This document shows, piece by piece, positions 1-64,000 of a stretch of DNA of 64,000 bases (the first letter of the stretch is position 1; each line of letters starts with the position of its first letter). Origin of the DNA: Gemmobacter sp. (GTDB taxonomy: Bacteria; Pseudomonadota; Alphaproteobacteria; Rhodobacterales; Rhodobacteraceae); contig JBKBQT010000004.1 in NCBI GenBank assembly GCA_046292445.1, positions 19,206-83,205 of the forward strand, read 5' to 3'. The position numbers and the translations under genes were made by a program. The notes under the pieces are model-generated. The model was not told the DNA's origin. It saw only the letters and a list, made by a program, of their open reading frames with translations, and did not search any database.

Positions 1-4133
<4,133 letters not shown>

Positions 4134-8495: not shown

Positions 8496-8518
8496 CCCGA
8501 GCCTTGCGCGACCGAACG

Positions 8519-8550
8519 GGGCCCCCGCATCGACGGGGGCCCTTTTCCTT
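8519..8550 (+). terminator. Intrinsic terminator downstream of rpoC
   Basis: GGGCCCCCG (8519-8527), 6-nt loop, CGGGGGCCC (8534-8542), followed by TTTTCCTTT. It begins 24 nt after the rpoC stop. Confidence 0.7.
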
Positions 8551-8589
8551 TCCGGATCGGCCGTTTACCGGTGACGCCCGGAGGGCACG

Positions 8590-9471
8590 ATGCCACTTGC
8601 CGACAATACCCGCGGGGCGGTCCTGATGATGGCGGCGATGGCCGGCTTCACGGTCAACGACGCCTTCATGAAATCGCTGTCGGGCGAGGTGCCGCTGTTC
8701 CAGGGGATTTTCCTGCGCGGGGCGCTGGCGACGCTGTGCCTCGGCCTTGCTGCAGCGGCCAGCGGTGCGCTGCGCGCGCGCATCGACCGCGGCGACATGC
8801 TGCGGGTCGGTGTCCGCGGCGTGGCCGAAATCCTCGCAGCCTGGTTCTTCATCCTTGCGCTTTTCAACCTGCCGCTGGCCAATGTCACGGCCGTGCTGCA
8901 GGCCCTGCCGCTGACCGTCACCCTCGCCGCCGCGCTGTTCATGGGCGAGCCGGTCGGCTGGCGGCGGTTCACGGCGATCGGGGTCGGGTTCTGCGGCGTG
9001 ATCCTGATCGTGCGGCCGGGGCCGGAGGGGTTCAATCTCTACGCCTTCGCCGCCCTCGCCGCCGTCGCCTGCGTGACGGTGCGCGACCTTGTGACACGGC
9101 GCCTCACGCCGGCGATGCCATCGCTTCTGGTGGCGGCAGCGGTGTCGGGGATGGTGACGGTCTTTGCCGGGCTCGCCAGCCTGACCGAAACCTGGGCGCC
9201 GCTCGGGGCGGGCACGGTGCTGCGCATCGCCGGTGCGGGGGCTTTCGTCATCCTCGGCTACATCGCTTCGGTCGGCGCGATGCGGGTGGGCGAGATCGGG
9301 GCGGTTGCGCCGTTCCGCTACACCAGCCTGCTGTGGGCGCTGATCCTCGGGCTGGCGGTGTTCGGCGAATGGCCCGATCCGCTCACGCTGGCCGGGGCGG
9401 GGATCGTGGCGGCGACCGGCCTCTACACCCTCTACCGCGAACAGCGCCTGCGCCGACGCGCCCGGCCCTGA
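8590..9471 (+). CDS. DMT superfamily (EamA-like) transporter
   Basis: 293 aa, hydrophobic throughout with about 10 TM-like segments in two similar halves. The N-terminus MAAMAGFTVNDAFMK is typical of EamA/RhaT-type permeases. Confidence 0.8.
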   Translation: MPLADNTRGAVLMMAAMAGFTVNDAFMKSLSGEVPLFQGIFLRGALATLCLGLAAAASGALRARIDRGDMLRVGVRGVAEILAAWFFILALFNLPLANVTAVLQALPLTVTLAAALFMGEPVGWRRFTAIGVGFCGVILIVRPGPEGFNLYAFAALAAVACVTVRDLVTRRLTPAMPSLLVAAAVSGMVTVFAGLASLTETWAPLGAGTVLRIAGAGAFVILGYIASVGAMRVGEIGAVAPFRYTSLLWALILGLAVFGEWPDPLTLAGAGIVAATGLYTLYREQRLRRRARP

Positions 9472-9536
9472 GCTGTCACGACGGTGTCATCGCAAGCTGG
9501 CAGAGGGCGCGCAGACACTTCCGCGTGAGGATACGC

Positions 9537-11708
9537 ATGACCGTCCGCCTGCTCGGGTTCACATCCGCCCTCGCCATCGCCGCTGCCGCCCCCGCGATGG
9601 CGGAAAAGCATTTCAACCGCATTGCGACCTTTCCCGTCATCGCCAACATGGCGGCCGGCGAGGACACGGGCCGCGAATCCTCGGCCGAGATCGTCTCGGC
9701 GTCTGAGGACGGGATGACGCTCGTCTATTCCGACAGCCCGCTGGGGGTGATCGGGCTGATCGACATCACCGATCCGCGGGCGCCGCGACCGCTGGGCAAT
9801 ATCGACATGGGCGGCGAGCCGACGACGGCGGTGTTCATCGGGAACCGGATCTTCGCCGGCGTGAACACGTCGGAAAGCTTCGTCAATCCCTCGGGCAAGC
9901 TGGTGACGGTCGATGCCGCGACACGGTCGATCCTTGCCGAATGCGACCTCGGCGGCCAGCCCGACGCGGTCGCCAAGGCGCCCGACGGCAGCTTCATCGC
10001 GGTCGCCATCGAGAACGAGCGGGACGAGGGCCTCAACAAGGGCGACATGCCGCAGCTTCCCGCCGGGTTCGTGGTCAAGCTGCCGGTGAGCGACGGGACG
10101 GTCGATTGTGCGGCCAAGCAGGTGATCGACCTGACCGGCCTCGCCGAGGTCGTCCCCGAGGATCCCGAGCCGGAATATGTCGATGTGAATGCGGCCGGCG
10201 AGATCGTCGTGACGCTGCAGGAAAACAACCACATCGTCATCATCGGTGCCGATGGCGCGGTGACCGCGCATTTCTCGGCCGGTGCGGTCGAGATGGACGG
10301 GATCGACATCCGCCGGAACGGCGCGCTGGAATTCACCGGCAAGAAGGGCCCGACCCCGCGCGAGCCCGATGCGGTCAAGTGGCTGGACAACGACCACATC
10401 GTCATGGCCAACGAAGGCGACTGGAAGGGCGGCAGCCGCAGCTGGTCGATCTTCCGCAAGGACGGCACGCTGGTCTTCGACAGCGGCGCGTCCTTCGAAC
10501 ATGCGCTGATCGAGATCGGCCATTACCCCGAGCACCGCAGCCACACCAAGGGGATCGAGCCCGAGGGTGTCGAGGTTGCGGCCTTCGACGGCATCCCGAT
10601 GGCCTTCATCGCGTCCGAACGGGGCTCGGCGATCGGCGTCTATGACCTGACCGATCCGGCCGCGCCGCGCCTGCACCAGATCCTCCCCTCGGGGATCAGC
10701 CCCGAAGGGATGGTCGCGATCCCGTCGCGCAACCTGCTCGCCTCGGCGAACGAATACGATGCGCGCAAGGGTGGCGGCGCCGGCAGCCATGTGATGATCT
10801 ACGAATGGGCCGAAGGCCCGGCCGCCTATCCGACGATCACCTCGGCCGGCGCCGAGACGCTGATCGGCTGGGGCGCGCTGTCGGGCCTCGTGGCCGATGC
10901 CGAAAAGCCCGGTATCCTCTATGCGGTCTCGGACAGCGTCTTTGCGATGCAGCCCGCGATCTACACCATCGACGCAACGCAGACCCCCGCCCGCATCACC
11001 GCCAAGACGGTCGTCACGCGGTTCGGGGCGCCGGCGCAGAAGCTCGACCTCGAAGGGATCGCGCTCGCCGCCGATGGCGGGTTCTGGCTCGCGTCCGAAG
11101 GGCGGACCGACCGGCTGACGCCGCATGCCATCATCCGCACCGATGCCAAGGGCGAGATCCGCGAAGAGATCGGGCTGCCGCCGGAATTGCTGAATTACGA
11201 GACCCGCTTCGGCTTCGAAGGCATCTCGGTCCTCGGCGACGTGCTCTGGCTCGCGGTGCAGCGCGAATGGAAGGACGATCCCAAGGGCATGGTCAAGCTG
11301 GTGGCCTATGACACCAAGGCCAAGACCTGGGGCGCGGTGCATTACCCGCTCGACGCGCCCCCCGCAGACGGCTGGATGGGCCTGTCCGAAATCACGATCC
11401 GCGGCGACTGGGCCTATGTGATCGAGCGCGACAACCAGATCGGCGCGGAGGCGCAGACCAAGCGCCTCTACCGCGTGCCGGTGGCGCAGCTCGCGGCGGC
11501 ACCGCTCGGCGGCACGTTGCCCGTGGTCACCAAGGAGCTCGTGCGCGACTTCATCCCCGACCTGCAGGCGCTGAACGGCTATGTGCAGGACAAGGTCGAA
11601 GGCTTTGCCATCGACGCGGCCGGCGCTGCCTTTGTCGTGACGGACAACGACGGGGTCCAGGATGCCTCGGGCGAGACGCTGTTCTGGTCGATCGGCACAG
11701 TCGAGTGA
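9537..11708 (+). CDS. Secreted beta-propeller protein with a phytase-like (esterase-like activity of phytase) C-terminal region
   Basis: I chose the ATG at 9537 inside the longer track ORF because it gives a clean signal peptide (MTVRLLGFTSALAIAAAAPAMA/EK). The 723-aa protein resembles the choice-of-anchor-I plus phytase-like architecture, assigned from memory. Confidence 0.6.
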   Translation: MTVRLLGFTSALAIAAAAPAMAEKHFNRIATFPVIANMAAGEDTGRESSAEIVSASEDGMTLVYSDSPLGVIGLIDITDPRAPRPLGNIDMGGEPTTAVFIGNRIFAGVNTSESFVNPSGKLVTVDAATRSILAECDLGGQPDAVAKAPDGSFIAVAIENERDEGLNKGDMPQLPAGFVVKLPVSDGTVDCAAKQVIDLTGLAEVVPEDPEPEYVDVNAAGEIVVTLQENNHIVIIGADGAVTAHFSAGAVEMDGIDIRRNGALEFTGKKGPTPREPDAVKWLDNDHIVMANEGDWKGGSRSWSIFRKDGTLVFDSGASFEHALIEIGHYPEHRSHTKGIEPEGVEVAAFDGIPMAFIASERGSAIGVYDLTDPAAPRLHQILPSGISPEGMVAIPSRNLLASANEYDARKGGGAGSHVMIYEWAEGPAAYPTITSAGAETLIGWGALSGLVADAEKPGILYAVSDSVFAMQPAIYTIDATQTPARITAKTVVTRFGAPAQKLDLEGIALAADGGFWLASEGRTDRLTPHAIIRTDAKGEIREEIGLPPELLNYETRFGFEGISVLGDVLWLAVQREWKDDPKGMVKLVAYDTKAKTWGAVHYPLDAPPADGWMGLSEITIRGDWAYVIERDNQIGAEAQTKRLYRVPVAQLAAAPLGGTLPVVTKELVRDFIPDLQALNGYVQDKVEGFAIDAAGAAFVVTDNDGVQDASGETLFWSIGTVE

Positions 11709-17435: not shown

Positions 17436-19406
17436 ATGCAGCCGCGTGACACCATGGAACTGCGCGAAGAGGATATTCGCGCCCACTACCCCGCCGCGCT
17501 GGCGCTGCTCGACGGGTTCGACCATGCCCCGCGTCTGGCCAGGCCGCGCGAGGCGGCGGCGGCACCGGCCGGCGAACGCTCGCCCGGCATTCCGGCCGCC
17601 CGGCCCCGGTTCCGCCCGACCACCCCCGGCCTCGTCACGCGGCCGGTGGAGCGTGCCGGGTCGGTCCGCCTTCTCGACCGCATCGGGGCCGTGGCCGAGG
17701 ACGGCCTGCCCACACCGCTCGCCGCCGCCACGGTCCAGACGCTGCGCCGGTCGCTGGCGATCGCGCTGGCGATGGGGGCGAGCTTTGCGGGCCAGATGGG
17801 GCTGGCCGAGCTCAAGAAGGCCAATCTCGAGAACCGCCTGCCCGATGCCCGGCGGGCCGAGTTCGCCGAATTGCTGGCGGCCGAGGCACTCGTCACGCTC
17901 CATGCCTTCGCCAATGCCGCCGCCTACCTCATCGCCCCGCATCTGACCGAGGCCACCGTGGACGTCGGCGGCGTGGAGGAGGTTCTGACCGACAACGCCC
18001 CCCTCGCCCTGCACGGCGCGCTGTGGGAGCTTGACCAGGACATCGCCGCCTTTGCCGCGGACGACGCCCGCCTTGCCGCCACGCTCGCGGCCTTTGCCGA
18101 GGGGCTGATGGCCAGGGCCGCCGCACGGGCCGAGGCCATGCCCCGCGCTGCCGCCTATGCGGCCGGCTCCTGGCGGATCGAAGCGGACGGGCTGACCCTC
18201 GCCGGCTTCACCCCCGCGCGCAAGGCGCGCGGCACGGCGCTGACGATGGCGTTCAAGAAGCCGACCGATGTGGTCGGCAACCACATCGCCAAGCATCAGG
18301 CGATGAAGCTTGCCAAGATGCTGATGGCCTATGACTTCACCCGCAGGCTCAACCCCTTTGCCGAACTGGGCGGGTTCATCTTCACCTTCATGGGCGACGG
18401 CGCGCCGGGCACCGGCAAGACGACGCTGATCCAGATGATGGCGGGGCTGATCCACGATTACTGCGCCGTGGCGGGCTATCCCTTCCGCTATGCCAATTTC
18501 TCGATCGACCAGATCGACAGCTATCAGGGCAAGTCGGGGCAGAACGCCAAGGCCTTCATCGACCAGATCCTCGACCCCGCCGTGATCGGCTTTGGCACCA
18601 TCGACGACATCGACCAGGTCGCGGGCAAGCGCGGCGACCGGCAATCCTCGGCGGGCCAGCAGGAGGTGACGGCGGTGTTCATGCAGGCCTTTGCCGGGGC
18701 CAATACCGTCGTGCGCGGCAACTGCACCTTCGGCATGTTCTCGAACTACCCCGAGAATGTGGACGACGCGCTGCGCCAGCGGGCCGCGGCGCGGTTCCTC
18801 GTGGACGGGCCGCAGAGCCGCGCCGACTACATCGACATCCTCGCGCTGCTTCTGGGGCGCAACCATGCGATCCCGCTGGGCGACCACACGCTGATGGCGG
18901 CACAGGAAATCCGCCGCGCCGTCGCGCAGAGCTACGAGGGGCACAACCGCCCGCAGGAGGCCGGGCTGGTCGCGGTCTGGCAGGCAGTCGAGGCGGCGGT
19001 CGGCCCGCTCGACACGCTGGCCAAGCTCGGCACCTACCTCAAGGCGATCCACGAGGCCGATCCGCGCTTCACCGGCCGCGCGATCAAGAACATCACCGAC
19101 GCGGTGAAGGTCCGCGCGATGGATGTGGAATTGCCCGACGCATGGATGGAAAACCCCGAGCTGTTCCTGTTCCAGCCCTACGACGCCAAGATGGCCATGC
19201 TGCGCGAGATGCTCGTGCCGATCACGCCGGCGATGGTCGTGCAGGAGATCAACCGCTATGCCGACTCCGAGTTCCGCTACGCCGACAATTCGGACGAGCG
19301 GGCGGTGGACGCGATGGTGCGCGAGATGGGCCGGGCAGAAGAGGCGCGGCGGCGGTATCAGGGGGGGCGGGCGGCAACGGGCGGTTTGCAGCGAGGTTCC
19401 CAATGA
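17436..19406 (+). CDS. AAA family ATPase (classical AAA module with about 290-aa N-terminal extension)
   Basis: Walker A GDGAPGTGKTT, Walker B VIGFGTIDDID, and sensor-1/second region of homology FSNYPENVDDALRQRAAARF. RBS GGAAAGG lies 8 nt upstream of the ATG at 17436. Confidence 0.85.
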   Translation: MQPRDTMELREEDIRAHYPAALALLDGFDHAPRLARPREAAAAPAGERSPGIPAARPRFRPTTPGLVTRPVERAGSVRLLDRIGAVAEDGLPTPLAAATVQTLRRSLAIALAMGASFAGQMGLAELKKANLENRLPDARRAEFAELLAAEALVTLHAFANAAAYLIAPHLTEATVDVGGVEEVLTDNAPLALHGALWELDQDIAAFAADDARLAATLAAFAEGLMARAAARAEAMPRAAAYAAGSWRIEADGLTLAGFTPARKARGTALTMAFKKPTDVVGNHIAKHQAMKLAKMLMAYDFTRRLNPFAELGGFIFTFMGDGAPGTGKTTLIQMMAGLIHDYCAVAGYPFRYANFSIDQIDSYQGKSGQNAKAFIDQILDPAVIGFGTIDDIDQVAGKRGDRQSSAGQQEVTAVFMQAFAGANTVVRGNCTFGMFSNYPENVDDALRQRAAARFLVDGPQSRADYIDILALLLGRNHAIPLGDHTLMAAQEIRRAVAQSYEGHNRPQEAGLVAVWQAVEAAVGPLDTLAKLGTYLKAIHEADPRFTGRAIKNITDAVKVRAMDVELPDAWMENPELFLFQPYDAKMAMLREMLVPITPAMVVQEINRYADSEFRYADNSDERAVDAMVREMGRAEEARRRYQGGRAATGGLQRGSQ

Positions 19407-20812
19407 CACCCCTCATCACCCGCGGCCTGATGTTCGGGAACCTGATCCCGGTCGAATCCCCCGCCCTTGTCGAGCGCTACAACCGCGCGCTCAAACACCT
19501 CACGGGGAAAACCACCGCCCTGCCCGACTTCCACATCGACATCTCGGGCTATTCGCCCGAGATCGGCGACGAGCTGGACGATACCCGCTACCTCAACCCC
19601 GATGGCGCCAACCGCAGGTTCATCCTGCTGACCACGGAACAGAAGCGCGCGCCGCTGCTCGAGGCGGATTTTTCCACCTCGCGCGGGATCCTGCGGCAGT
19701 TCATCGACGCCAACGAGGCGCAGCTTTTCGCGCTGACCGCCCGCGATGCGGTGGCGGGGGAGCTGTCGAATACCGTCTATGACCTCGGCACCCCCGCCCG
19801 CCTTTTCGACATCCGCCGCGTGACGGTCGAGGCGGACACGATCGGCGGGCATGTGGCCGATGCGGCGAAACTCGCGGCCCTGATCGAGCGGTTCCGCAAG
19901 GAACCCGACGGCTGGCGCGACGACGTGCTGATCGCCGAGATGATCGGCCTGGCGAAACGGACCGGCGATGTCACCCGCGTGCCGATCGCGCTGCCGCAGA
20001 TGACCTTCGAGCAGCCGAATTTCTGGACGAGCCATTTCGGCGGCCTCTACATCTTTCGCGGGGTGAAGTTTCCGGCGGCGATCACCGTGCGCCCGCGCGC
20101 CGAGATCGGCCGGCTGCCGGTGCCGCAGGTGATGGATCTGGACGACCGCAACGCCATTGCCGACTGGCTCGACCGCAACGCGCTGGTCGAGCCCATCGTC
20201 GTTGCCCGCGATCTCGACACCGCCGCCCTTCTGCGGCAGAAGCTCGACTTTGTCCTTGTCGCGGCGGCCGAGACACTCGGCGTGATGGACGCCAAGGCGA
20301 CGCGCGCCGACCTGCGCGGCATCGCCCGCAAGCTCGGCGCCGCGCTGCCCGAGGCCTTCAAGGGCCTGGCCGACCTTCTGCGCTGGGTCGAGACGGGCGG
20401 GGAATGGCCGCGCATCACATCCGAGCATCCGGCCTATTTCTACACGCTGCGCGCCGCGCGCGGACCGGACCGCGACCTTGTAAACCAGCTTCTGTCCGAA
20501 CTGTCGCCGCTGGACGTGCGGCAGATGTTCATCTGCCACAAGGCGCGGTTCTACCGCGACTATGCCGGATGGTCGGCGGCCAAGCGCGAATGGGTGGCCG
20601 AGTTCCTCGCCCGCGAATATGCGGTGGACAAGGCCGGGGCGCGTGCGGCACTCTTCGGACCAGAGCCGGGCATGGACGAGGCGCCGCGCCCGCCGCCCGC
20701 ACCGCCGCCGCGGGTCGATATCGTCGGGCCCTGGGGTGCTGTCGCGCGCGCGGCCGCGGCCCGGGCGGGGTCTGGCTCGGGCGATGACCGCAAGGGGAGA
20801 ACGCGCCGATGA
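19403..20812 (+). CDS. Hypothetical protein, no recognisable domain
   Basis: 469 aa from the ATG at 19403, overlapping the upstream TGA (19404-19406). Globular-looking body followed by a Pro/Ala/Arg-rich tail. I vaguely recall homologs annotated only as a DUF in Rhodobacterales. Confidence 0.75.
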   Translation: MTPLITRGLMFGNLIPVESPALVERYNRALKHLTGKTTALPDFHIDISGYSPEIGDELDDTRYLNPDGANRRFILLTTEQKRAPLLEADFSTSRGILRQFIDANEAQLFALTARDAVAGELSNTVYDLGTPARLFDIRRVTVEADTIGGHVADAAKLAALIERFRKEPDGWRDDVLIAEMIGLAKRTGDVTRVPIALPQMTFEQPNFWTSHFGGLYIFRGVKFPAAITVRPRAEIGRLPVPQVMDLDDRNAIADWLDRNALVEPIVVARDLDTAALLRQKLDFVLVAAAETLGVMDAKATRADLRGIARKLGAALPEAFKGLADLLRWVETGGEWPRITSEHPAYFYTLRAARGPDRDLVNQLLSELSPLDVRQMFICHKARFYRDYAGWSAAKREWVAEFLAREYAVDKAGARAALFGPEPGMDEAPRPPPAPPPRVDIVGPWGAVARAAAARAGSGSGDDRKGRTRR

Positions 20813-21075
20813 TCCCCCTGCTGCGCGGCCTTGTCTTCGCGCTTGCCGTGCTGACGGTGATTTATGTCGCGGTGTCGCTCTATTCCGCCTCGCTGCGCCG
20901 CGAGCGGCTCGAGAAACAGTGGGAGGCCGAGGGGCGCCCGGGCACACGCGACGATTATGTCGCGGCAGGCATGGCAATCTACCGCAAGTCCTTTCGCCGG
21001 CGCATGCTGATCCTCATCTATATCCTGCCGCTGAGCGGCATGGCGATTCTCGTCTATCTGCTGAACTACGCCTGA
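20809..21075 (+). CDS. Small membrane protein with two TM helices
   Basis: 88 aa. The ATG at 20809 overlaps the upstream TGA. Two hydrophobic helices (LLRGLVFALAVLTVIYVAVSLY and MLILIYILPLSGMAILVYLL) flank a charged loop. Confidence 0.6.
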   Translation: MIPLLRGLVFALAVLTVIYVAVSLYSASLRRERLEKQWEAEGRPGTRDDYVAAGMAIYRKSFRRRMLILIYILPLSGMAILVYLLNYA

Positions 21076-21087
21076 AGGGGGCCAAGC

Positions 21088-21768
21088 ATGCTGCGCTGGA
21101 TCAAGTGGACGGTGATCGCGGTGTTCGCCCTGCTCGTCGCTTCGGTGCTGCACTACACGCTGCCGCAGCGCGACATCGTGCGGATCGTGGGCGTGAACAC
21201 GCAGCGCATGGATCTGGGCGAGAATGCGTTCTTCTTTTCCGGCCCTGCGGTCGGCGCGGGCACCGCGGCAGACGGGACGCGCGACATCCTGTTCATCAAC
21301 ACGATCCGGCCGAACGGCCGCCCCATGGTCTATCGCAACGAGGATACCGGCTGGATCTGGCCGCCCTATTTCAAGATCAACAGCTTCAGCCTGCAGGCGC
21401 GGGCATCCGACCTGGTATCGACCGAGGCGAACCCGCGCTGGGTCGCGGTGACGCATTACGGCTGGCGAAACGAGTTCTTTACCATCTTCCCCAATGCGAT
21501 CCGGCTGACCGAGGTCGAGGGGCCGGATGTCACGCTCATCCCCTGGCTCAACATCGTGATCCTGACGCTGCTGGCAGTCGCTTCGCTGACGGTCTGGCGC
21601 ATGCTGGCGCAGTTCCGCGAACGCACGATCGACCCGCTGCTCGACGCGGCGGGGGATGCCATCGACCGCGGGCAGGCGCGGGCGGAGGCGGCGCGTCGCG
21701 AGGCGCGCACGATGCGCGGGCGGTTGATGGCCTGGCTCGACAGCTGGCGGGGCAAGCCGCGGCGGTGA
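21088..21768 (+). CDS. Membrane protein with N- and C-terminal TM helices (DUF1523-like, tentative)
   Basis: 226 aa, 12 nt after the preceding stop, with RBS GAAGGGGG. N-terminal anchor WIKWTVIAVFALLVASVL, a central soluble domain, a second TM LNIVILTLLAVASLTVW, and a basic tail. Confidence 0.6.
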   Translation: MLRWIKWTVIAVFALLVASVLHYTLPQRDIVRIVGVNTQRMDLGENAFFFSGPAVGAGTAADGTRDILFINTIRPNGRPMVYRNEDTGWIWPPYFKINSFSLQARASDLVSTEANPRWVAVTHYGWRNEFFTIFPNAIRLTEVEGPDVTLIPWLNIVILTLLAVASLTVWRMLAQFRERTIDPLLDAAGDAIDRGQARAEAARREARTMRGRLMAWLDSWRGKPRR

Positions 21769-21843
21769 TGCCGCGGCGCAGCATCAGGGCTTGACCAACC
21801 CGGCCCCCGCGGTAGGGTGCAGGCGATTCGAGCGGAGGCCCCC

Positions 21844-22089
21844 ATGACCCAGCGCCTGCACCTCGTCTTCGGCGGCGAGCTTGTGGACCCGTCGTCCACG
21901 ACCTTCCGCGACCCGGATGCGATCCATGTCGTGGGGATGTTCCCCGATTACGCCAGTGCCTACCGCGCCTGGAAGGCCGAGGCGCAGCGCACGGTGGACA
22001 ATGCCCACACGCGGTATTTCATCGCCCATATCCACCGCTTGCGCGACGAGGAGCAGCCGGCATCGGCAACCGAGGAGCTTGGCCGCTGA
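21844..22089 (+). CDS. Small conserved soluble protein (DUF4170-like, tentative)
   Basis: 81 aa from the ATG at 21844 (GGAGG 7 nt upstream): MTQRLHLVFGGELVDP... From memory, a protein of this type sits upstream of waaA in many alphaproteobacteria. Confidence 0.55.
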   Translation: MTQRLHLVFGGELVDPSSTTFRDPDAIHVVGMFPDYASAYRAWKAEAQRTVDNAHTRYFIAHIHRLRDEEQPASATEELGR

Positions 22090-22115
22090 GCCGACTGCCC
22101 CTGTCGCTCTATGCG

Positions 22116-23303
22116 ATGCGCGCACGGTCGCGCGCACGCCGGGCCGGCGTTGCAGACCTTCCGCTACAGCCGCCGCGGGCCGACGGGCCGGTGATCTGGC
22201 TCGACGCCGCCGATGCTGCCGCCGTGCCGCGCATCGCCGCCCTTGCGCGGCAGCTGCGGCGCGACCGGCCCCGGCTCACGGTGGTGCTGACCGGGCCGGG
22301 CCAGCCTTCGGCACAGGCAGGCGTGGTCATGCTCCCGCCGCTGGTCGATACGCCCGAGGTCAACGCCGCCTTCCTCGCGCATTGGCAACCGCTTGTTGCC
22401 GTGCTCGCCGGCGGGCCGGTGCGCCCCGCGCTGGCCGAGGCTGCCGCATCGGCGGCCGTGCCGCTGATCTGGCTCGAGGCGCCGGAACCCGAGATCGCAG
22501 GGGGCGGCCGCTGGCCGCGCCTGATGCGGCGCACGCTGTTGCGGATGCAGGCGATCCACAGTCGCGACGAGGCCGCGCTGGCCGCACTGCGGCGGGCCGG
22601 GGCGCCGACCGACCGGCTGGAACTGACCGGCCTGCTCGAGCTTCCGGCAACACCGCCCGCCGCGAACGAACCCGAACGCGCGGCACTGTCGCGCGCGATC
22701 GGGACGCGTCCGGTCTGGCTCGCCGCAGCGGTCACGCTGGCCGAACTCGACGCCGTCGCCGCGGCGCAGCTCGAGGCGATGCGATCGGCGCACCGGCTTT
22801 TGCTCATTGCCGTGCCCGAGCCGGTGACCGCTGCGGCGGCGCTCGCCGACCGGCTCCAGTCCGTGCATGGCCTGACCGTCGGCCGCCGGTCGGCCGAGGC
22901 CGAGATCGACGACGACCTGCAGGTCTATATCGCCGATACCGAGGGCGAATATGGCCTGTGGTATCGTCTGGCACCCGTCGCCTACCTCGGCGGAACGCTG
23001 ACCCCGACCGGCAGTCTCCGGCATCCGTTCGAGGCTGCGACGCTCGGGACGGCGATCATCCACGGCCCGGCCGGGGGCGAGGCGGCCGGGGTGTTGGACA
23101 TGCTGATACAGGCGCGCGCCACCCGCCCCATCGCCAGCGGCGCGGAACTGGGCACCGCGGTCGGCGACCTGCTCGCCCCCGACCGCGCGGCGCTGCTTGC
23201 GCAGGCGGGCTGGATGCAGGCGACGGCCGGGGCGGCGGCGACGGCGCGTGCAGTGCATGCCATCCTGCCGATCATCGACGCTGCGGCGGGCACGCGGCCG
23301 TGA
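22116..23303 (+). CDS. waaA: 3-deoxy-D-manno-octulosonic acid transferase homolog with degenerate catalytic motifs
   Basis: Collinear with E. coli WaaA, with scaffold matches such as DTEGEYGLWYRLAPVAYLGG versus GDTMGEL...FVGGS. The signature motifs are replaced (see findings). The true start may be an upstream non-ATG codon, since the frame is open back to about 22086 (LSRLPLSLYA). Confidence 0.7.
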   Translation: MRARSRARRAGVADLPLQPPRADGPVIWLDAADAAAVPRIAALARQLRRDRPRLTVVLTGPGQPSAQAGVVMLPPLVDTPEVNAAFLAHWQPLVAVLAGGPVRPALAEAAASAAVPLIWLEAPEPEIAGGGRWPRLMRRTLLRMQAIHSRDEAALAALRRAGAPTDRLELTGLLELPATPPAANEPERAALSRAIGTRPVWLAAAVTLAELDAVAAAQLEAMRSAHRLLLIAVPEPVTAAAALADRLQSVHGLTVGRRSAEAEIDDDLQVYIADTEGEYGLWYRLAPVAYLGGTLTPTGSLRHPFEAATLGTAIIHGPAGGEAAGVLDMLIQARATRPIASGAELGTAVGDLLAPDRAALLAQAGWMQATAGAAATARAVHAILPIIDAAAGTRP

Positions 23304-24121
23304 CGGTCGTCATCGCCCTGCGTCCGGCCTATCGCGCGGCGGACGGGCTCGTGCCGGCCCTCGCCGCGCTGGCCGCGCATCTGGCCGCCCGCGGACGGCG
23401 GGTTCACCTGGCGCTGGCGGCGCCCGGCCCGGCGGGGCGGATCGCCCTCGATGCGGCCGCAGCCGACCCGATGCTGGCGCTGCTGGCGGCGCATGCACCG
23501 CTCTGGACGGCAGAGGCGCTGCCCGCGGCCGTGGCCGCGGCTTCGGGGGCGGATGGGGGAGCGGATGCGGTTCTGGCGGGCGGCGCCCTGCCGGGGGCCG
23601 CGCTGCGCCTGCTGCTGGCCAGCGCCCGCGTTGGCCTCGGTCGCGCATGGCCGCTGGGGCCGCTTGCCGCGCCGCGCGGGAAGCTCCTGCGCGCGGCCGA
23701 TCTGTCGATCGTCATTGGCACGCGGGCCGAGATCGCCCATGCCCGCACGCGCGACCCTGCCTTGCAGGCAGGGATCGCCGCGGTGCCGGCCCTTCTTGCA
23801 ACGGGGATGGACTGGGCGGGCGAGCGTCTGTTGCTCGCTGCGCCCGCGCCGGACCTTCCGGGGCTCGCCGCACTCCTGACCGCGGCGGGCGCGAGCGTCG
23901 CCGCGACGGCGCCGCTCGATCCGGCCGGCCTGCTGGCGCCGGCGCTGCGCAGCCGCCTGATGGCCGAGGCGCGGGCCCGTCGTGCGCGGATCGTTGCCCC
24001 CGAGGCCGAGGCAGCGCGGATGCCCGCCGCCTTCCGGCGCGAGGTTCTGGCACTGCCGGTCCGCCTGACCTTCCCCCAGCCTGCGCCGCTCGATGCCGCC
24101 CTTGCGCAGATCGGCCTCTAG
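23300..24121 (+). CDS. lpxK: Tetraacyldisaccharide 4'-kinase homolog lacking the P-loop and other motifs
   Basis: 273 aa from the GTG at 23300, overlapping the waaA TGA (23301-23303). The C-terminal half is collinear with LpxK (LATGMDW..., MPAAFRREVLALPVRL). There is no GxxGKT anywhere in the frame. About 31% Ala by my hand count. Confidence 0.65.
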   Translation: MTVVIALRPAYRAADGLVPALAALAAHLAARGRRVHLALAAPGPAGRIALDAAAADPMLALLAAHAPLWTAEALPAAVAAASGADGGADAVLAGGALPGAALRLLLASARVGLGRAWPLGPLAAPRGKLLRAADLSIVIGTRAEIAHARTRDPALQAGIAAVPALLATGMDWAGERLLLAAPAPDLPGLAALLTAAGASVAATAPLDPAGLLAPALRSRLMAEARARRARIVAPEAEAARMPAAFRREVLALPVRLTFPQPAPLDAALAQIGL

Positions 24122-24122
24122 G

Positions 24123-25826
24123 TCAGTTCCAGCACGATACCTGCACCGCCAGCGCCCGGCCGATCGCGGTCACATCCTCGGGCGCCATCGCACCACTGCG
24201 CACCGCCGTCGGCACAGCGATGCCCCCGGCCTCCAGCACGGGCGCCACGACCGCGACCGGTGCGAAATATGCAACATCTTCCGGGAGTATCCGGCGGCCG
24301 TTTCCCCCCTGCGGCAGCAGAATCCCGACAACAGCACCCGCCGCGTCGAGCACAGGGCCACCGATATCGCCGGGCAGTGCGGCCAGCCGCGCCCGCGCGA
24401 CCCCGGCCTCGCCTGCAAGCCCGCCCTCGGCCGCGAATGTCCCGAAGGTGAGCACCGGCACCGCAAGCGCTGCGCCGAACGGGAACCCGGCCACCGCCAC
24501 CTCTGCCCCCGGACGCGGCAGCGCCCCCGCCCCGGCGAGGCGCGCCGGGGCAAGCGGCACGCGCGGGCGGAGCACGGCGATCCCCGCGGCCTCGTCGCGC
24601 AGGACGACATCCGCCGCGACCCCACCCTCGACTGTCACCGACCCGCAACCCGCCACCGCCTCGGCCGCCGTCAGAACCGTGCCGCGCGCATCGACAAAGG
24701 CGCCCGACCGCTCGCGCGCCGGGCGGCGCGGCTCCAGCCCCGTCATCATGCCGGCCTTCACCGCCGGATCGAGCGGTTCCAGCGCGGGGTCCAGCGCCCG
24801 GTCCCCGATGGCGCGAAAGCTCCCCCGCATCGCCGCCAGAACCCGCCCCATGCGCACCGCATCGGGCGTGCGCCAGGACAACAGATACCCTTTGATAAGG
24901 CCGCCGGTCAGTTCCGCATAGGCATAGGTCTCGACCATCGCGTTGCTGCCGCGGATCTCGAACGACCGCGCCCGGCGCTCGCGGGGGCCGTCGGGGGGCA
25001 CCATCTCGGCCGCCTGCAGAAGATCATAGAGGGCGAACAGCGCGCCCTGGTCACCCGGCTGGCTGATGAGAACCACCCGCACGCCGCTGTCGCCGCGGGG
25101 CGTATACTGCACGAAGGGCGGCTCGTAGCCGGCGAAGGCGACGAGACCGAGCGGCAGGTCGATCTCGATCCCCGCCTCGGCCTCGGTCACCCGTGTCAGG
25201 CCTAGCTCCGCCACACCCGCCCGCCAGGCCGCGATCAGCGCGGTCCGCTGACGGGCCGTCAGGACGCCGGTCGCCTCGGCACCCTCGGCTGCCTGCCATG
25301 CGCCGATCGCCGCGCGCGTCCCCGGCCCGAAGGCCCCGTCGATGGCCGCGGCATAATGCCCGAACCAGGCGAGTGCGGTCTGGATCTCTTCGCGCGCGGG
25401 CCGGTCCAGCGCGGCCTCGTCCCGGCGGGCATCGGCGAGAGTCTCGCCCTCGGTCACAACGGTCGGTGCGGGGGCCGGCGGCGCAGGCGTATCCGATTGC
25501 GGACCGATCCGGGCGCGGAAATTCCGCCCGTCGGCGAGGAAACTGTCGCCCGGGATCAGCCGGTCGTCGCGCAGCAGGCCAAGCCGCAAAGCCGCGTCGT
25601 CGGCCGCATAGGGCCCCAGCACGATCCCGAACCACCCGGTCGTGAGCGCATAGGCCGACACATCGGGGAAGGCGCCCGCCCAGGCTTGCAACCGCGCGAG
25701 CGCCTCGCGTTCGGAGGGCTGCGCCTCGATCTGGATCCAGCGCGTCTGCGCCGCCGCGCCCTGCGCGACCAGCATCAAGCCCACCGCAAACACCGCCGCG
25801 GCAAACCGCAATCCCAACCGCATCAT
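24123..25826 (-). CDS. Secreted protein: SPOR-like N-domain, peptidoglycan-binding domain, trypsin-like domain with a substituted catalytic triad
   Basis: Signal peptide MMRLGLRFAAAVFAVGLMLVAQGAAAQ. PG_binding_1-like IQTALAWFGHYAAAIDGAFGPGTRAAIGAWQ. C-terminal chymotrypsin-fold sequence, but with TAAEAV, AGIAVL and GDIGGP at the His, Asp and Ser positions. Confidence 0.7.
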   Translation of the reverse strand: MMRLGLRFAAAVFAVGLMLVAQGAAAQTRWIQIEAQPSEREALARLQAWAGAFPDVSAYALTTGWFGIVLGPYAADDAALRLGLLRDDRLIPGDSFLADGRNFRARIGPQSDTPAPPAPAPTVVTEGETLADARRDEAALDRPAREEIQTALAWFGHYAAAIDGAFGPGTRAAIGAWQAAEGAEATGVLTARQRTALIAAWRAGVAELGLTRVTEAEAGIEIDLPLGLVAFAGYEPPFVQYTPRGDSGVRVVLISQPGDQGALFALYDLLQAAEMVPPDGPRERRARSFEIRGSNAMVETYAYAELTGGLIKGYLLSWRTPDAVRMGRVLAAMRGSFRAIGDRALDPALEPLDPAVKAGMMTGLEPRRPARERSGAFVDARGTVLTAAEAVAGCGSVTVEGGVAADVVLRDEAAGIAVLRPRVPLAPARLAGAGALPRPGAEVAVAGFPFGAALAVPVLTFGTFAAEGGLAGEAGVARARLAALPGDIGGPVLDAAGAVVGILLPQGGNGRRILPEDVAYFAPVAVVAPVLEAGGIAVPTAVRSGAMAPEDVTAIGRALAVQVSCWN

Positions 25827-62186: not shown

Positions 62187-63830
62187 TCACACCAGCCGCG
62201 CCCCCTCCACCGCCGCCCGCACGAAATCGGCGAAGAGCGGGTGCGGGGCGAAGGGTTTAGATTTCAGTTCCGGATGGAACTGGACGCCGATGAACCACGG
62301 GTGGCCCTTGACCTCGACAATTTCGGGGAGGCGGCCGTCCGGCGACATGCCGGAAAACCACAGCCCGCAGGCCTCGAGCCGCGCGCGGTAGTCGATATCC
62401 ACCTCGTAGCGGTGCCGGTGGCGTTCCTCGATCTCGAGCGTGCCATAGACCTCGGCCGCCTTCGAGCCCGGTGCAAGGCGCGCGGTATAGGCGCCGAGCC
62501 GCATCGTGCCGCCCTTGTCGTCCCCCGGGCGGCGGGCGACGACGTGATTGCCCTGCACCCATTCCTTGAGGTGATAGACGACCGGCGTGAACCGGCGCGC
62601 GCCGGCCTCGTGATCGAACTCCTCCGACCCGGCATCGGCGACCCCGGCGAGGTTGCGCGCCGCCTCGATCACCGCCATCTGCATGCCAAGACAGATGCCG
62701 AGATAGGGCACCCCCTTCTCGCGCGCGAATTGTGCGGCCTTGATCTTGCCCTCCGTCCCCCGTTCGCCAAAGCCGCCGGGCACGAGGATCGCGTGAAACC
62801 CCTCGAGCCATGGCCCCGGATCCTCGCGCTCGAAGATCTCGGCGTCGATCCATTCCGCCTTGACGCGCACCCGGTTGGCGATGCCGCCATGGGTCAGCGC
62901 CTCGGCGATGGATTTGTAGGCATCCTCGAGCTGGGTATACTTGCCGACCACTGCGACGCGCACGGTGCCCTCGGCATTCTCGAGCCGGTCCATCACGTCT
63001 TCCCAGCGCGCGAGGTTGGGCCGCGGCGCGGGCGCGATCCCGAAGGCATCGAGCACCGCCTGATCGAGGCCCGCGCGATGATAGGCCATCGGCGCCTCGT
63101 AGATTGAGCGGAGGTCATAGGCCGGGATCACCGCCGCCTCGCGCACGTTGCAAAAGAGCGCGATCTTGGCCCGCTCGCGGTCGGGGATGGGATGCTCGCT
63201 GCGGCACACGAGGATGTCGGGGGCGATGCCGATCGCGCGCAGTTCCTTGACCGAATGCTGCGTCGGCTTGGTCTTGAGCTCGCCCGAGGCCGCCAGATAG
63301 GGCAGCAGCGTCAGATGCATGAAGATGCACTGTCCGCGCGGGCGTTCTTGCGCGAACTGGCGGATTGCCTCGAAGAACGGCAGGCCCTCGATATCGCCGA
63401 CCGTGCCGCCGATCTCGCAGAGCATGAAATCCACCCCGTCCTCGCCGATGGCGAGGAAGTCCTTGATCTCGTTGGTGACATGCGGGATCACCTGGATCGT
63501 CTTGCCGAGGTAGTCGCCCCGCCGCTCCTTCTCGAGGACGGTGGAATAGATCCGCCCCGACGAGACCGAATCCGTCTTGCGCGCCGCAACCCCCGTGAAG
63601 CGTTCGTAATGCCCGAGGTCGAGGTCGGTTTCCGCGCCGTCGTCGGTGACGAAAACCTCGCCATGCTCGAACGGGCTCATCGTGCCGGGATCGACATTGA
63701 GATAGGGGTCGAGCTTGCGCAGCCGCACCGTGTAGCCGCGCGCCTGCAGCAGCGCCCCGAGCGCGGCAGAGGCGAGCCCCTTGCCGAGCGAGGACACGAC
63801 GCCGCCAGTGATGAAGATGTAGCGCGCCAT
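62187..63830 (-). CDS. pyrG: CTP synthase
   Basis: 547 aa from the ATG at 63830 ([18 protein letters not shown]). Glutaminase motifs GICLGMQ and HRHRYE. Confidence 0.97.
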
Positions 63831-64000
63831 GAGGCCCCCCGCGATCTGGACGACCCACGCGGGAATCGCGGGATCACGGGGTTTGAGATATAGACCCATC
63901 ACCCGCTACGCGCAACGCAACATCCAGCCCCGTGGCCCGACGCAGCGTCAAGCGCTTGTGGCGTCAGTCTGCGCGCGGCGGCGTCAGCGGCGCGGCCGGC

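Follow-up and report, generated by a model that had tools for sequence, protein, structure and literature searches.

A Rhodobacterales-type WaaA homolog without the Escherichia coli signature motifs and its degenerate LpxK-like neighbour in a Gemmobacter contig

Does a glycosyltransferase gene whose product has lost nearly all signature motifs of its Escherichia coli homolog still encode a working enzyme? The question is raised by a homolog of waaA (kdtA), the gene for the lipid IVA transferase that uses cytidine monophosphate-activated 3-deoxy-D-manno-octulosonate (CMP-Kdo), in Gemmobacter sp. (assembly GCA_046292445.1, contig JBKBQT010000004.1, positions 19,206 to 83,205; this whole stretch of 64,000 nucleotides is called the window here). 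A preliminary description of the window, made from sequence alone, regarded the gene mainly as a dead enzyme or cryptic pseudogene. Our analysis revealed that the waaA-like gene is a live gene under purifying selection and not a pseudogene. Alignment with relatives places its product as an ordinary member of a Rhodobacterales-type WaaA family, a subfamily defined here, and on this comparison motif replacement is a trait of the whole family and not of the window gene. By the same kind of comparison, the gene that truly lost its enzyme motifs, yet is still under selection, is the lpxK-like gene immediately downstream.

The open reading frame (ORF) at 22116..23303 on the forward strand encodes 395 amino acids, with ATG 22116 as its first canonical start and TGA 23301-23303 as its stop. 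Its product passed the gathering cutoff (23.9) of the Pfam family PF04413, the Kdo transferase N-domain, with 44.5 bits (E=1.6e-11). All five NCBIfam WaaA equivalogs (NF004385-NF004389) matched it over its full length and none was passed, the scores being 26-106 bits against cutoffs of 363-617 and the top score 106.5 bits against a cutoff of 617. The protein was mapped onto E. coli WaaA in three ways, namely by MAFFT alignments of 15 and of 263 sequences and by hhalign comparison of a 65-sequence family profile with E. coli and Aquifex aeolicus WaaA (99.8% probability, 361 columns). All three alignments agree on the motif correspondence: HSVSVGE of E. coli is represented by DAADAAA in the window protein, ETELWPN by GGPVRPA, GSLKFD by GLLELP, STHEGEE by AVTLAEL, VPRHPER by VPEPVTA and GGHNPLE by SLRHPFE. 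The six E. coli strings that the preliminary description had given were all found in E. coli K-12 WaaA (L001:2541-3815), and its identification of a WaaA homolog with replaced signature motifs is borne out by the Pfam and hhalign results and by the three alignments. It was also right about the retained hydrophobic scaffold (RPVWLA, LLLIAVP, DTEGEYGLWYRLAP..GG) and about the composition, which is rich in alanine (22.8%; G+A+R+P 48.6%) and in guanine plus cytosine (GC; 0.75 for the ORF vs 0.69 for the window). A local GC peak of 0.76 lies at 22001-24000, against about 0.69 for the window, and in relatives too waaA and lpxK are richer in GC and alanine than their neighbours (Cypionkella waaA 0.70 vs 0.61 for its locus).

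The functional residues of A. aeolicus WaaA are reportedly G30/E31, S54, E98/E100, K162, R212, N273 and E276; their positions were transferred through alignment with the 2xci sequence. In the window protein, G30/E31 (SVGE in E. coli) are represented by A/A, S54 by a gap, E98/E100 (ETELWP) by G/P, K162 (GSLKF) by E, R212 (VPRH) by E and N273 (GGHN) by H, and E276 (PLE) is kept as E306. The E. coli and Aquifex signature residues are truly lost, as had been claimed; the dead-enzyme or pseudogene reading built on that loss fails on comparison with relatives.

Homolog searching identified 374 clusters (90% identity) with E<=1e-3 among the candidates scored, and 4862 representatives (50% identity) with E<=1e-3, 496 of them with E<=1e-30. 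All named homologs belong to Rhodobacterales/Paracoccaceae (Gemmobacter, Tabrizicola, Cypionkella, Fertoebacter, Acidimangrovimonas). Further members came from a genome scan, among them Ruixingdingia, Albidovulum, Haematobacter, Paracoccus yeei, Rhodovulum and Roseinatronobacter. Cultured genera carrying the same replaced motifs include Paracoccus, Rhodovulum, Haematobacter, Gemmobacter and Cypionkella. Motif columns were read from an alignment of 262 homologs with E. coli WaaA. Glutamic acid occurs in 161 of the 262 homologs at the position of E. coli K208 (A. aeolicus K162), where lysine is outside the seven commonest residues. The position of R269 (A. aeolicus R212) is represented by D (80), E (52), A (42), Q (35) and R (20), that of E130 (A. 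aeolicus E98) by G (131), E (46) and D (44), and that of E60 (A. aeolicus E31) by A, D or S. Equivalog scores of WaaA from the cultured and named Cypionkella, Paracoccus yeei, Rhodovulum, Haematobacter and Ruixingdingia are likewise 114-179 bits against the cutoffs of 363-617. Motif loss is not peculiar to this gene and is the norm across several hundred Rhodobacterales WaaA clusters.

The family has a conserved residue set of its own, comprising (in window numbering) R198-P-V-W (RPVWLA), E210, H226-R227-L-L-L-I-x-V-P234, R258 and D274-x3-E278, followed by G-L-W-Y-R284-L-A-P, G292-G293, R302-x-P304-x-E306, H-G317-P318 and W366. R198, E210, R258, D274, E278, GG, P304, E306 and GP are common to E. 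coli. Basic residues newly invariant across about 260 homologs are the HR pair that precedes the LLLI strand, the R of WYRLAP and an R in place of the His of GGHN. The acidic residues at the K162 and R212 positions, taken with these new basic residues, hint at a rewired donor site in the family; E175, E235, R227, R284 and R302 are the window residues tied to this candidate site. Among the 76 columns conserved at 80% or more in 254 other members, the window protein kept 66 (87%; family mean 91.4%, standard deviation (SD) 5.8; rank 49/254), and it retains 27/27 invariant columns of family alignment A4. Identity to the family averages 0.403 for the window protein vs 0.413 (SD 0.041; rank 117/254), which indicates no rate acceleration. 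A few residues are lost in the window's clade though E. coli and most family members have them, namely H54 (to D), P107, P297, R361 and the R of HPER. Literature searches on Rhodobacter/Rhodobacterales kdtA/waaA and on WaaA residues found nothing relevant on Rhodobacterales WaaA. The family itself is already annotated, though uncharacterised, and the flagged gene is an ordinary member; the family-wide loss and charge reversal of canonical WaaA phosphate-binding residues appears to be undescribed in the literature searched.

For the analysis of selection, orthologous DNA was taken from six other lineages of the window's clade, making seven lineages with the window. These include the closest relative, L074 (GCA_046313215.1, JBKBYX01, a 'Gemmobacter sp.' metagenome-assembled genome (MAG)), as well as L004/L005/L009 (MAG CALIZF01, N1_Bin_METABAT__58_1), L006 and L008 (JGI 3300044941), L080 (JGI 3300045482, contig Ga0484004_008249) and L081 (Logan SRR35364708). 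Between the window and L074, the waaA-like gene has a ratio of nonsynonymous to synonymous rates (dN/dS, omega) of 0.156 (Nei-Gojobori) at a dS of 0.21 (0.16-0.31 across the locus), with 26 nonsynonymous to 60 synonymous differences against a neutral expectation of about 61:25. When the frame is shifted, this alignment yields 3.0 and 3.9; the seven neighbouring genes give 0.00-0.10. Deeper comparisons gave an omega of 0.19 (L006-L008) and of 0.31-0.41 for the deeper pairs, similar to the adjacent protease gene (0.24-0.33); shifted frames gave 1.3-3.1, and position 3 differs 2-3.5 times as often as positions 1 and 2. Stops or frame-breaking differences were absent from the waaA-like gene in all seven clade lineages, at dS above 0.7, and every gap in the protein alignment is in-frame. 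The pseudogene reading fails because the orthologs share the substitutions and evolve under purifying selection, an outcome that the preliminary description had itself named as refuting it, and the dN/dS value against L074, which it had proposed to estimate, speaks the same way.

Long ORFs occur in other frames of the same DNA, including one of 746 amino acids at 21881-24121 (+) that spans both the waaA-like and the lpxK-like gene, and two on the opposite strand at 22164-23258 and 22109-22807. These alternative and antisense ORFs are by-products of the 75-78% GC and not genes; high GC opens other frames, yet it is not the reason why the waaA-like frame stays open. Antisense genes were rejected as the source of selection: the wobble-aligned antisense ORFs cover parts alone (22109-22807, 23404-23748) and therefore cannot explain selection over the full length of both genes.

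Comparison of the clade lineages also revised the start of the gene. The frame beginning at 22116 exists as originally reported; the coding frame most likely starts at CTG 22086, 30 nucleotides upstream. The codons from 22086 (LSRLPLSLYA) represent the N-terminal hydrophobic segment of the family (MxxSLGLxLYxLxxRR), kept through synonymous changes. The junction C-TGA, in which CTG overlaps the DUF4170 stop, and the peptide L-S/T-R-L/F-x-x-x-L-Y/W/F were found in 7/7 lineages (window, L074, L004, L006, L008, L080, L081), and 36 to 41 codons, always in-frame, separate the CTG from the WLDA/WFDA motif in strand beta-1. An in-frame ATG, GTG or TTG before the hydrophobic segment was found in none of the seven. 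A canonical start before strand beta-1 is absent altogether in L080 and L081, L004 and L008 have one at beta-1 alone, and an internal ATG directly after the segment occurs in the window, L074 and L006. In relatives outside the clade, waaA begins with ATG or GTG 10-30 nucleotides past the DUF4170 stop, and comparison with one of them, L007, suggests that an 18-nucleotide in-frame deletion removed the ATG in the clade. Initiation would then occur at the near-cognate CTG, coupled to DUF4170 termination; since this CTG overlaps the upstream stop, the waaA-like gene is presumably expressed at a low level and in dependence on DUF4170 translation. Past the hydrophobic segment, a linker of about 30 residues is under weak constraint (pN/pS about 0.6-1.3). 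A clade-wide start of this kind, a CTG overlapping a stop codon, appears to be undescribed in the literature searched.

The AlphaFold2 model of the WaaA-like protein, built from the 65-sequence alignment, has a mean predicted local distance difference test (pLDDT) score of 94.7 and a predicted template modelling (pTM) score of 0.88. Its best Protein Data Bank match by Foldseek is A. aeolicus WaaA (2xci; E=6e-17, TM 0.65/0.71), and the C-terminal CMP-Kdo-binding domain of A. baumannii WaaA (4bfc) matches the model with TM 0.85 and a root-mean-square deviation of 1.9. The protein is predicted to fold confidently as a GT-B WaaA.

The preliminary description missed a motif-stripped enzyme next door: its picture of a gene without enzyme motifs does not suit the waaA it had flagged and fits the homolog of lpxK (tetraacyldisaccharide-1-phosphate 4'-kinase) that follows. 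Searching all fetched loci with Cypionkella LpxK by tblastn revealed about 58 loci in which a canonical LpxK with 57-69% identity and with Walker A, DDGFQ and TEKD directly follows waaA. The window and its clade instead have a homolog of 246-274 amino acids with 32-34% identity, without Walker A, DDGFQ and TEKD and without a Pfam match. The ORF at 23300-24121 gave no Pfam or NCBIfam match even at E<=10. It aligns with canonical Rhodobacterales LpxK at 32-40% identity over residues ~46-318 (tblastn 34% over 304 columns, E=3e-31; Amaricoccus LpxK 38% identical). The first ~45 residues, which form a membrane helix, are missing, as are the SRGHGG, AGIGRPEKFF and DH motifs. GGTGKTP is represented by AYRAADGLVP, DEP by ADP, DDGFQ by AGGALP, PAGPLRE by PLGPLAA and TEKD by PEAE, and the C-terminal LALPVRL..APLDAAL segment is kept. 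In LpxK the catalytic element is the P-loop (PMC4402001), and therefore the LpxK-like protein, which lacks it, cannot be a 4'-kinase. Each of the six clade lineages still carrying the gene shows the motif loss, which was found in this small uncultured clade alone; a metagenome scan with the LpxK-like alignment found 3 loci, all distant.

Despite this loss the lpxK-like gene carries the marks of selection. Omega between the window and L074 is 0.199 (30N:58S) with one in-frame indel of 4 amino acids; L006-L008 give 0.29 and the deeper pairs 0.38-0.64, against 1.1-2.6 in shifted frames. About ten indels, each of them in-frame, can be deduced from the gaps of the clade alignment (A6), and no stops occur among the clade lineages keeping the gene. 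The protein is 31% alanine (G+A+R+P 57%). Its AlphaFold model has a pLDDT of 87.7, and the LpxK structures 4itn and 4ehx are among the best Foldseek matches (TMq 0.60), the input alignment of the model having included canonical LpxK. In L080 the gene is absent: the waaA-like stop is followed by 50 nucleotides (3045-3096) and then by the convergent PG-binding/trypsin-like protease gene, and the waaA-like gene is intact there with an omega of 0.34-0.39 vs other lineages. In L006 the lpxK-like frame seemed to extend farther upstream; this was rejected, being a low-complexity alignment and not homology. In the literature searched there appears to be no description of an LpxK pseudoenzyme that is conserved under selection in a clade and has been deleted in one of its members.

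Rhodobacter lipopolysaccharide (LPS) contains Kdo. We infer that the Rhodobacterales WaaA family would be the Kdo transferase of these bacteria, because a GT30 homolog stands at the ancestral waaA position, beside a canonical lpxK in about 58 genomes; Rhodobacter lipid A has been a classic object of study (PMC4402001). The explanation we favour, and consider probable without being confident of it, is that the WaaA-like protein of the window is still a working transferase and that the locus has lost its 4'-kinase function or has it provided elsewhere. The family would probably bind CMP-Kdo through a rewired pocket, in which the ribose-binding glutamic acid E306 is kept, R302 takes the place of the His of GGHN, H226/R227 and R284 are new invariant residues, and acidic residues occupy the K162 and R212 positions. 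In the window's clade, the waaA ATG was removed and the start would have moved to the CTG overlapping the DUF4170 stop; the lpxK partner has turned catalytically dead while still selected, and one lineage has deleted it.

Several points weigh against a working transferase. Among the functional residues reported for A. aeolicus the window protein keeps E276 alone, and K162 and R212 are charge-reversed. The lost canonical start suggests reduced expression of the waaA-like gene. The family sample was picked by similarity to the window protein, which favours an 'average' outcome for it in the comparisons of conservation and identity. The acceptor of E. coli WaaA is 4'-phosphorylated lipid IVA (PMC4402001); the adjacent 4'-kinase being dead, the normal WaaA acceptor may not exist in the clade.

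A possible, though rather doubtful, alternative is that the clade gave up lipid A 4'-phosphorylation or all LPS, and the WaaA-like and dead LpxK proteins serve as something other than a Kdo transferase system, either as a pseudoenzyme or scaffold pair or with the former as a glycosyltransferase for a new acceptor. This matches the repurposing that the preliminary description kept as a fallback. It would account for an LpxK-like protein that lacks every catalytic motif and the membrane helix in six clade lineages and is still selected, for the deletion of its gene in L080, for the lost waaA ATG, for the unusual alanine and GC content of both genes, and for the clade's loss of H54 (to D), P107, P297, R361 and the R of HPER in WaaA. 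Yet the charged residues invariant in the family are retained in the WaaA-like protein, and its rate is not accelerated. It is also kept in the lineage without the lpxK-like gene, and therefore the two are not an obligate pair. To our knowledge, no LPS-free Rhodobacterales are known.

Less probable still is that functional waaA and/or lpxK genes lie elsewhere in the genome and that the window copies are relaxed paralogs drifting towards a side function. The strong acceleration of the LpxK-like protein (32-34% identity vs 57-69% in other genomes) and the loss of its gene in one lineage form a pattern typical of genes whose function another gene has taken over. Against this, the WaaA-like protein shows no relaxation relative to the family, and no second copy of waaA or lpxK was found in the 64-kb window or in the read parts of the gene tables of clade loci L004 and L075. 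A neutral pseudogene, its frame open merely because stops are rare at 75% GC, is hardly credible: the long ORFs in alternative frames and antisense to the gene, the raised GC and alanine content and the lost canonical waaA start would suit it, and opposed to them stand an omega of 0.16-0.38 in the annotated frame vs 1.3-3.9 in shifted frames, an ORF intact with in-frame gaps in seven clade lineages at dS above 0.7, the 87% of family-conserved columns kept and the confident predicted fold.

A bolder account is conceivable, though as a whole rather unlikely to hold. An uncultured Paracoccaceae clade would have dismantled the 4'-kinase step, with LpxK becoming a selected pseudoenzyme later deleted in one lineage; it would keep a coupled WaaA without a canonical start codon, and either its lipid A would at no stage carry a 4'-phosphate or LPS would be missing altogether. 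All WaaA of the Rhodobacterales family would function through a rewired site in which two phosphate-binding basic residues became acidic, the donor being bound with the help of a metal or in some otherwise different way.

Comparison with known systems shows how far the two proteins resemble their characterised homologs. The window protein is homologous to WaaA/KdtA (E. coli b3633; A. aeolicus 2XCI/2XCU) over about 360 columns and shares with it the two-domain GT-B fold and the operon place upstream of lpxK. Residues universal in WaaA that it keeps are, in E. coli numbering, R232, E244, R291, D307, E311, GG325-326, P336, E338 and G349-P350. Unlike WaaA/KdtA, to which it is about 25% identical, it has SVGE, ETELWP, GSLKF, VPRHPER and GGHN replaced, acidic residues for the basic K162 and R212 at the CMP phosphate, scores at one-sixth to one-quarter of the NCBIfam equivalog cutoffs and, in its clade, no canonical start codon. 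To the Rhodobacterales WaaA of Cypionkella sinensis, Gemmobacter megaterium, Tabrizicola and Paracoccus yeei it is 40-50% identical, with the same family-specific residues, the same synteny and the same absence of E. coli motifs. Those genes start with ATG or GTG and have a canonical LpxK next to them, unlike the window's clade with its CTG/stop overlap and dead LpxK; the clade has also lost their equivalents of H54, of D-P-x-R after VP, and of P107, P297 and R361. The lpxK-like ORF is the positional ortholog of LpxK (PF02606; A. aeolicus 4EHX/4ITN) with a predicted two-domain fold kept. It differs in having no Pfam match, no N-terminal membrane helix, no Walker A P-loop, DEP, DDGFQ, PAGPLRE, DH or TEKD, and 31% alanine. 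In lacking catalytic motifs while retaining its predicted fold, an omega of 0.2-0.3 and in-frame indels alone, it resembles pseudoenzymes such as pseudokinases kept as scaffolds or regulators. It is unlike them in having been dispensed with in one lineage, and a partner or regulatory role is putative.

For annotation, these results mean that comparison with E. coli motifs will always make Rhodobacterales WaaA look dead, and that the curated equivalog models miss the order's own residue set. As for mechanism, the catalysis of WaaA has been deduced from a single structure, that of A. aeolicus, and a large natural family without K162, R212, E98 and E31 at the waaA locus of Kdo-LPS bacteria questions which residues are essential; the family constitutes a ready set of natural variants. 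A lineage that conserves an LpxK pseudoenzyme, with one member doing without it, makes a candidate case of non-canonical lipid A or of LPS loss, and we know of neither such a lipid A nor LPS loss in Rhodobacterales. The conserved CTG start overlapping a stop codon would, if true, be a small clean case of non-canonical coupled initiation across a clade.

The order DUF4170-waaA-lpxK was found in the window, in Cypionkella, in L007, in every other locus for which a gene table was read and in about 58 further loci in all, and in the window the place of lpxK is filled by the degenerate homolog (Table 1).

Table 1. Coordinates in the window of the genes and the start region considered in this study
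Feature	Coordinates	Strand	Evidence and remarks
DUF1523 gene	21088..21768	+	PF07509 3.9e-72; omega 0.095; syntenic in L004, L008, L074, L080
DUF4170 gene	21844..22089	+	PF13773 2.7e-25; omega 0.02 vs L074; conserved upstream partner of waaA
Start region of the waaA-like gene	22086..22118	+	CTG 22086 overlaps DUF4170 stop TGA 22087-22089 (C-TGA); internal ATG 22116
WaaA-like (GT30, Rhodobacterales type) coding region	22086..23303	+	Pfam/NCBIfam matches, family alignment, dN/dS, AlphaFold, Foldseek
LpxK-like pseudokinase, 273 amino acids	23300..24121	+	GTG 23300 overlaps waaA stop (GTGA); positional ortholog of lpxK

Other LPS genes were not found in Pfam scans of 37 window ORFs, stretches such as 26.9-28.4, 30.7-33.2, 34.4-36.2 and 52.1-53.3 kb lying outside the scan. 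The adjacency of pyrG and kdsA was considered as a proxy for loss of Kdo synthesis and rejected. In the window (pyrG at 62187-63905, - strand), L075 and L076, GST and mscL-type genes and not kdsA come after pyrG; kdsA is absent after pyrG in the clade and also in Albidovulum sediminis, which has a canonical LpxK, and therefore pyrG synteny says nothing on Kdo synthesis.

Upstream of waaA, the conserved block 17436-22089 (+) comprises genes for an AAA ATPase, DUF6638, an 88-amino-acid ORF, DUF1523 and DUF4170. It is strongly constrained (omega 0.00-0.10 vs L074), and the 88-amino-acid product is identical in the window and L074. Convergent with the lpxK-like gene, 24123-25826 (-) encodes a protein of 567 amino acids with a SPOR-like N-terminus and PG_binding_1 and trypsin-like domains; in all clade loci examined this protease gene lies next downstream, but not in Cypionkella (L002) or L007, the two loci outside the clade with gene tables read. 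Farther upstream, directly after rpoB-rpoC, a stop-to-stop frame of about 1070 codons at 8496-11708 (+) carries phytase-like esterase and choice-of-anchor I domains.

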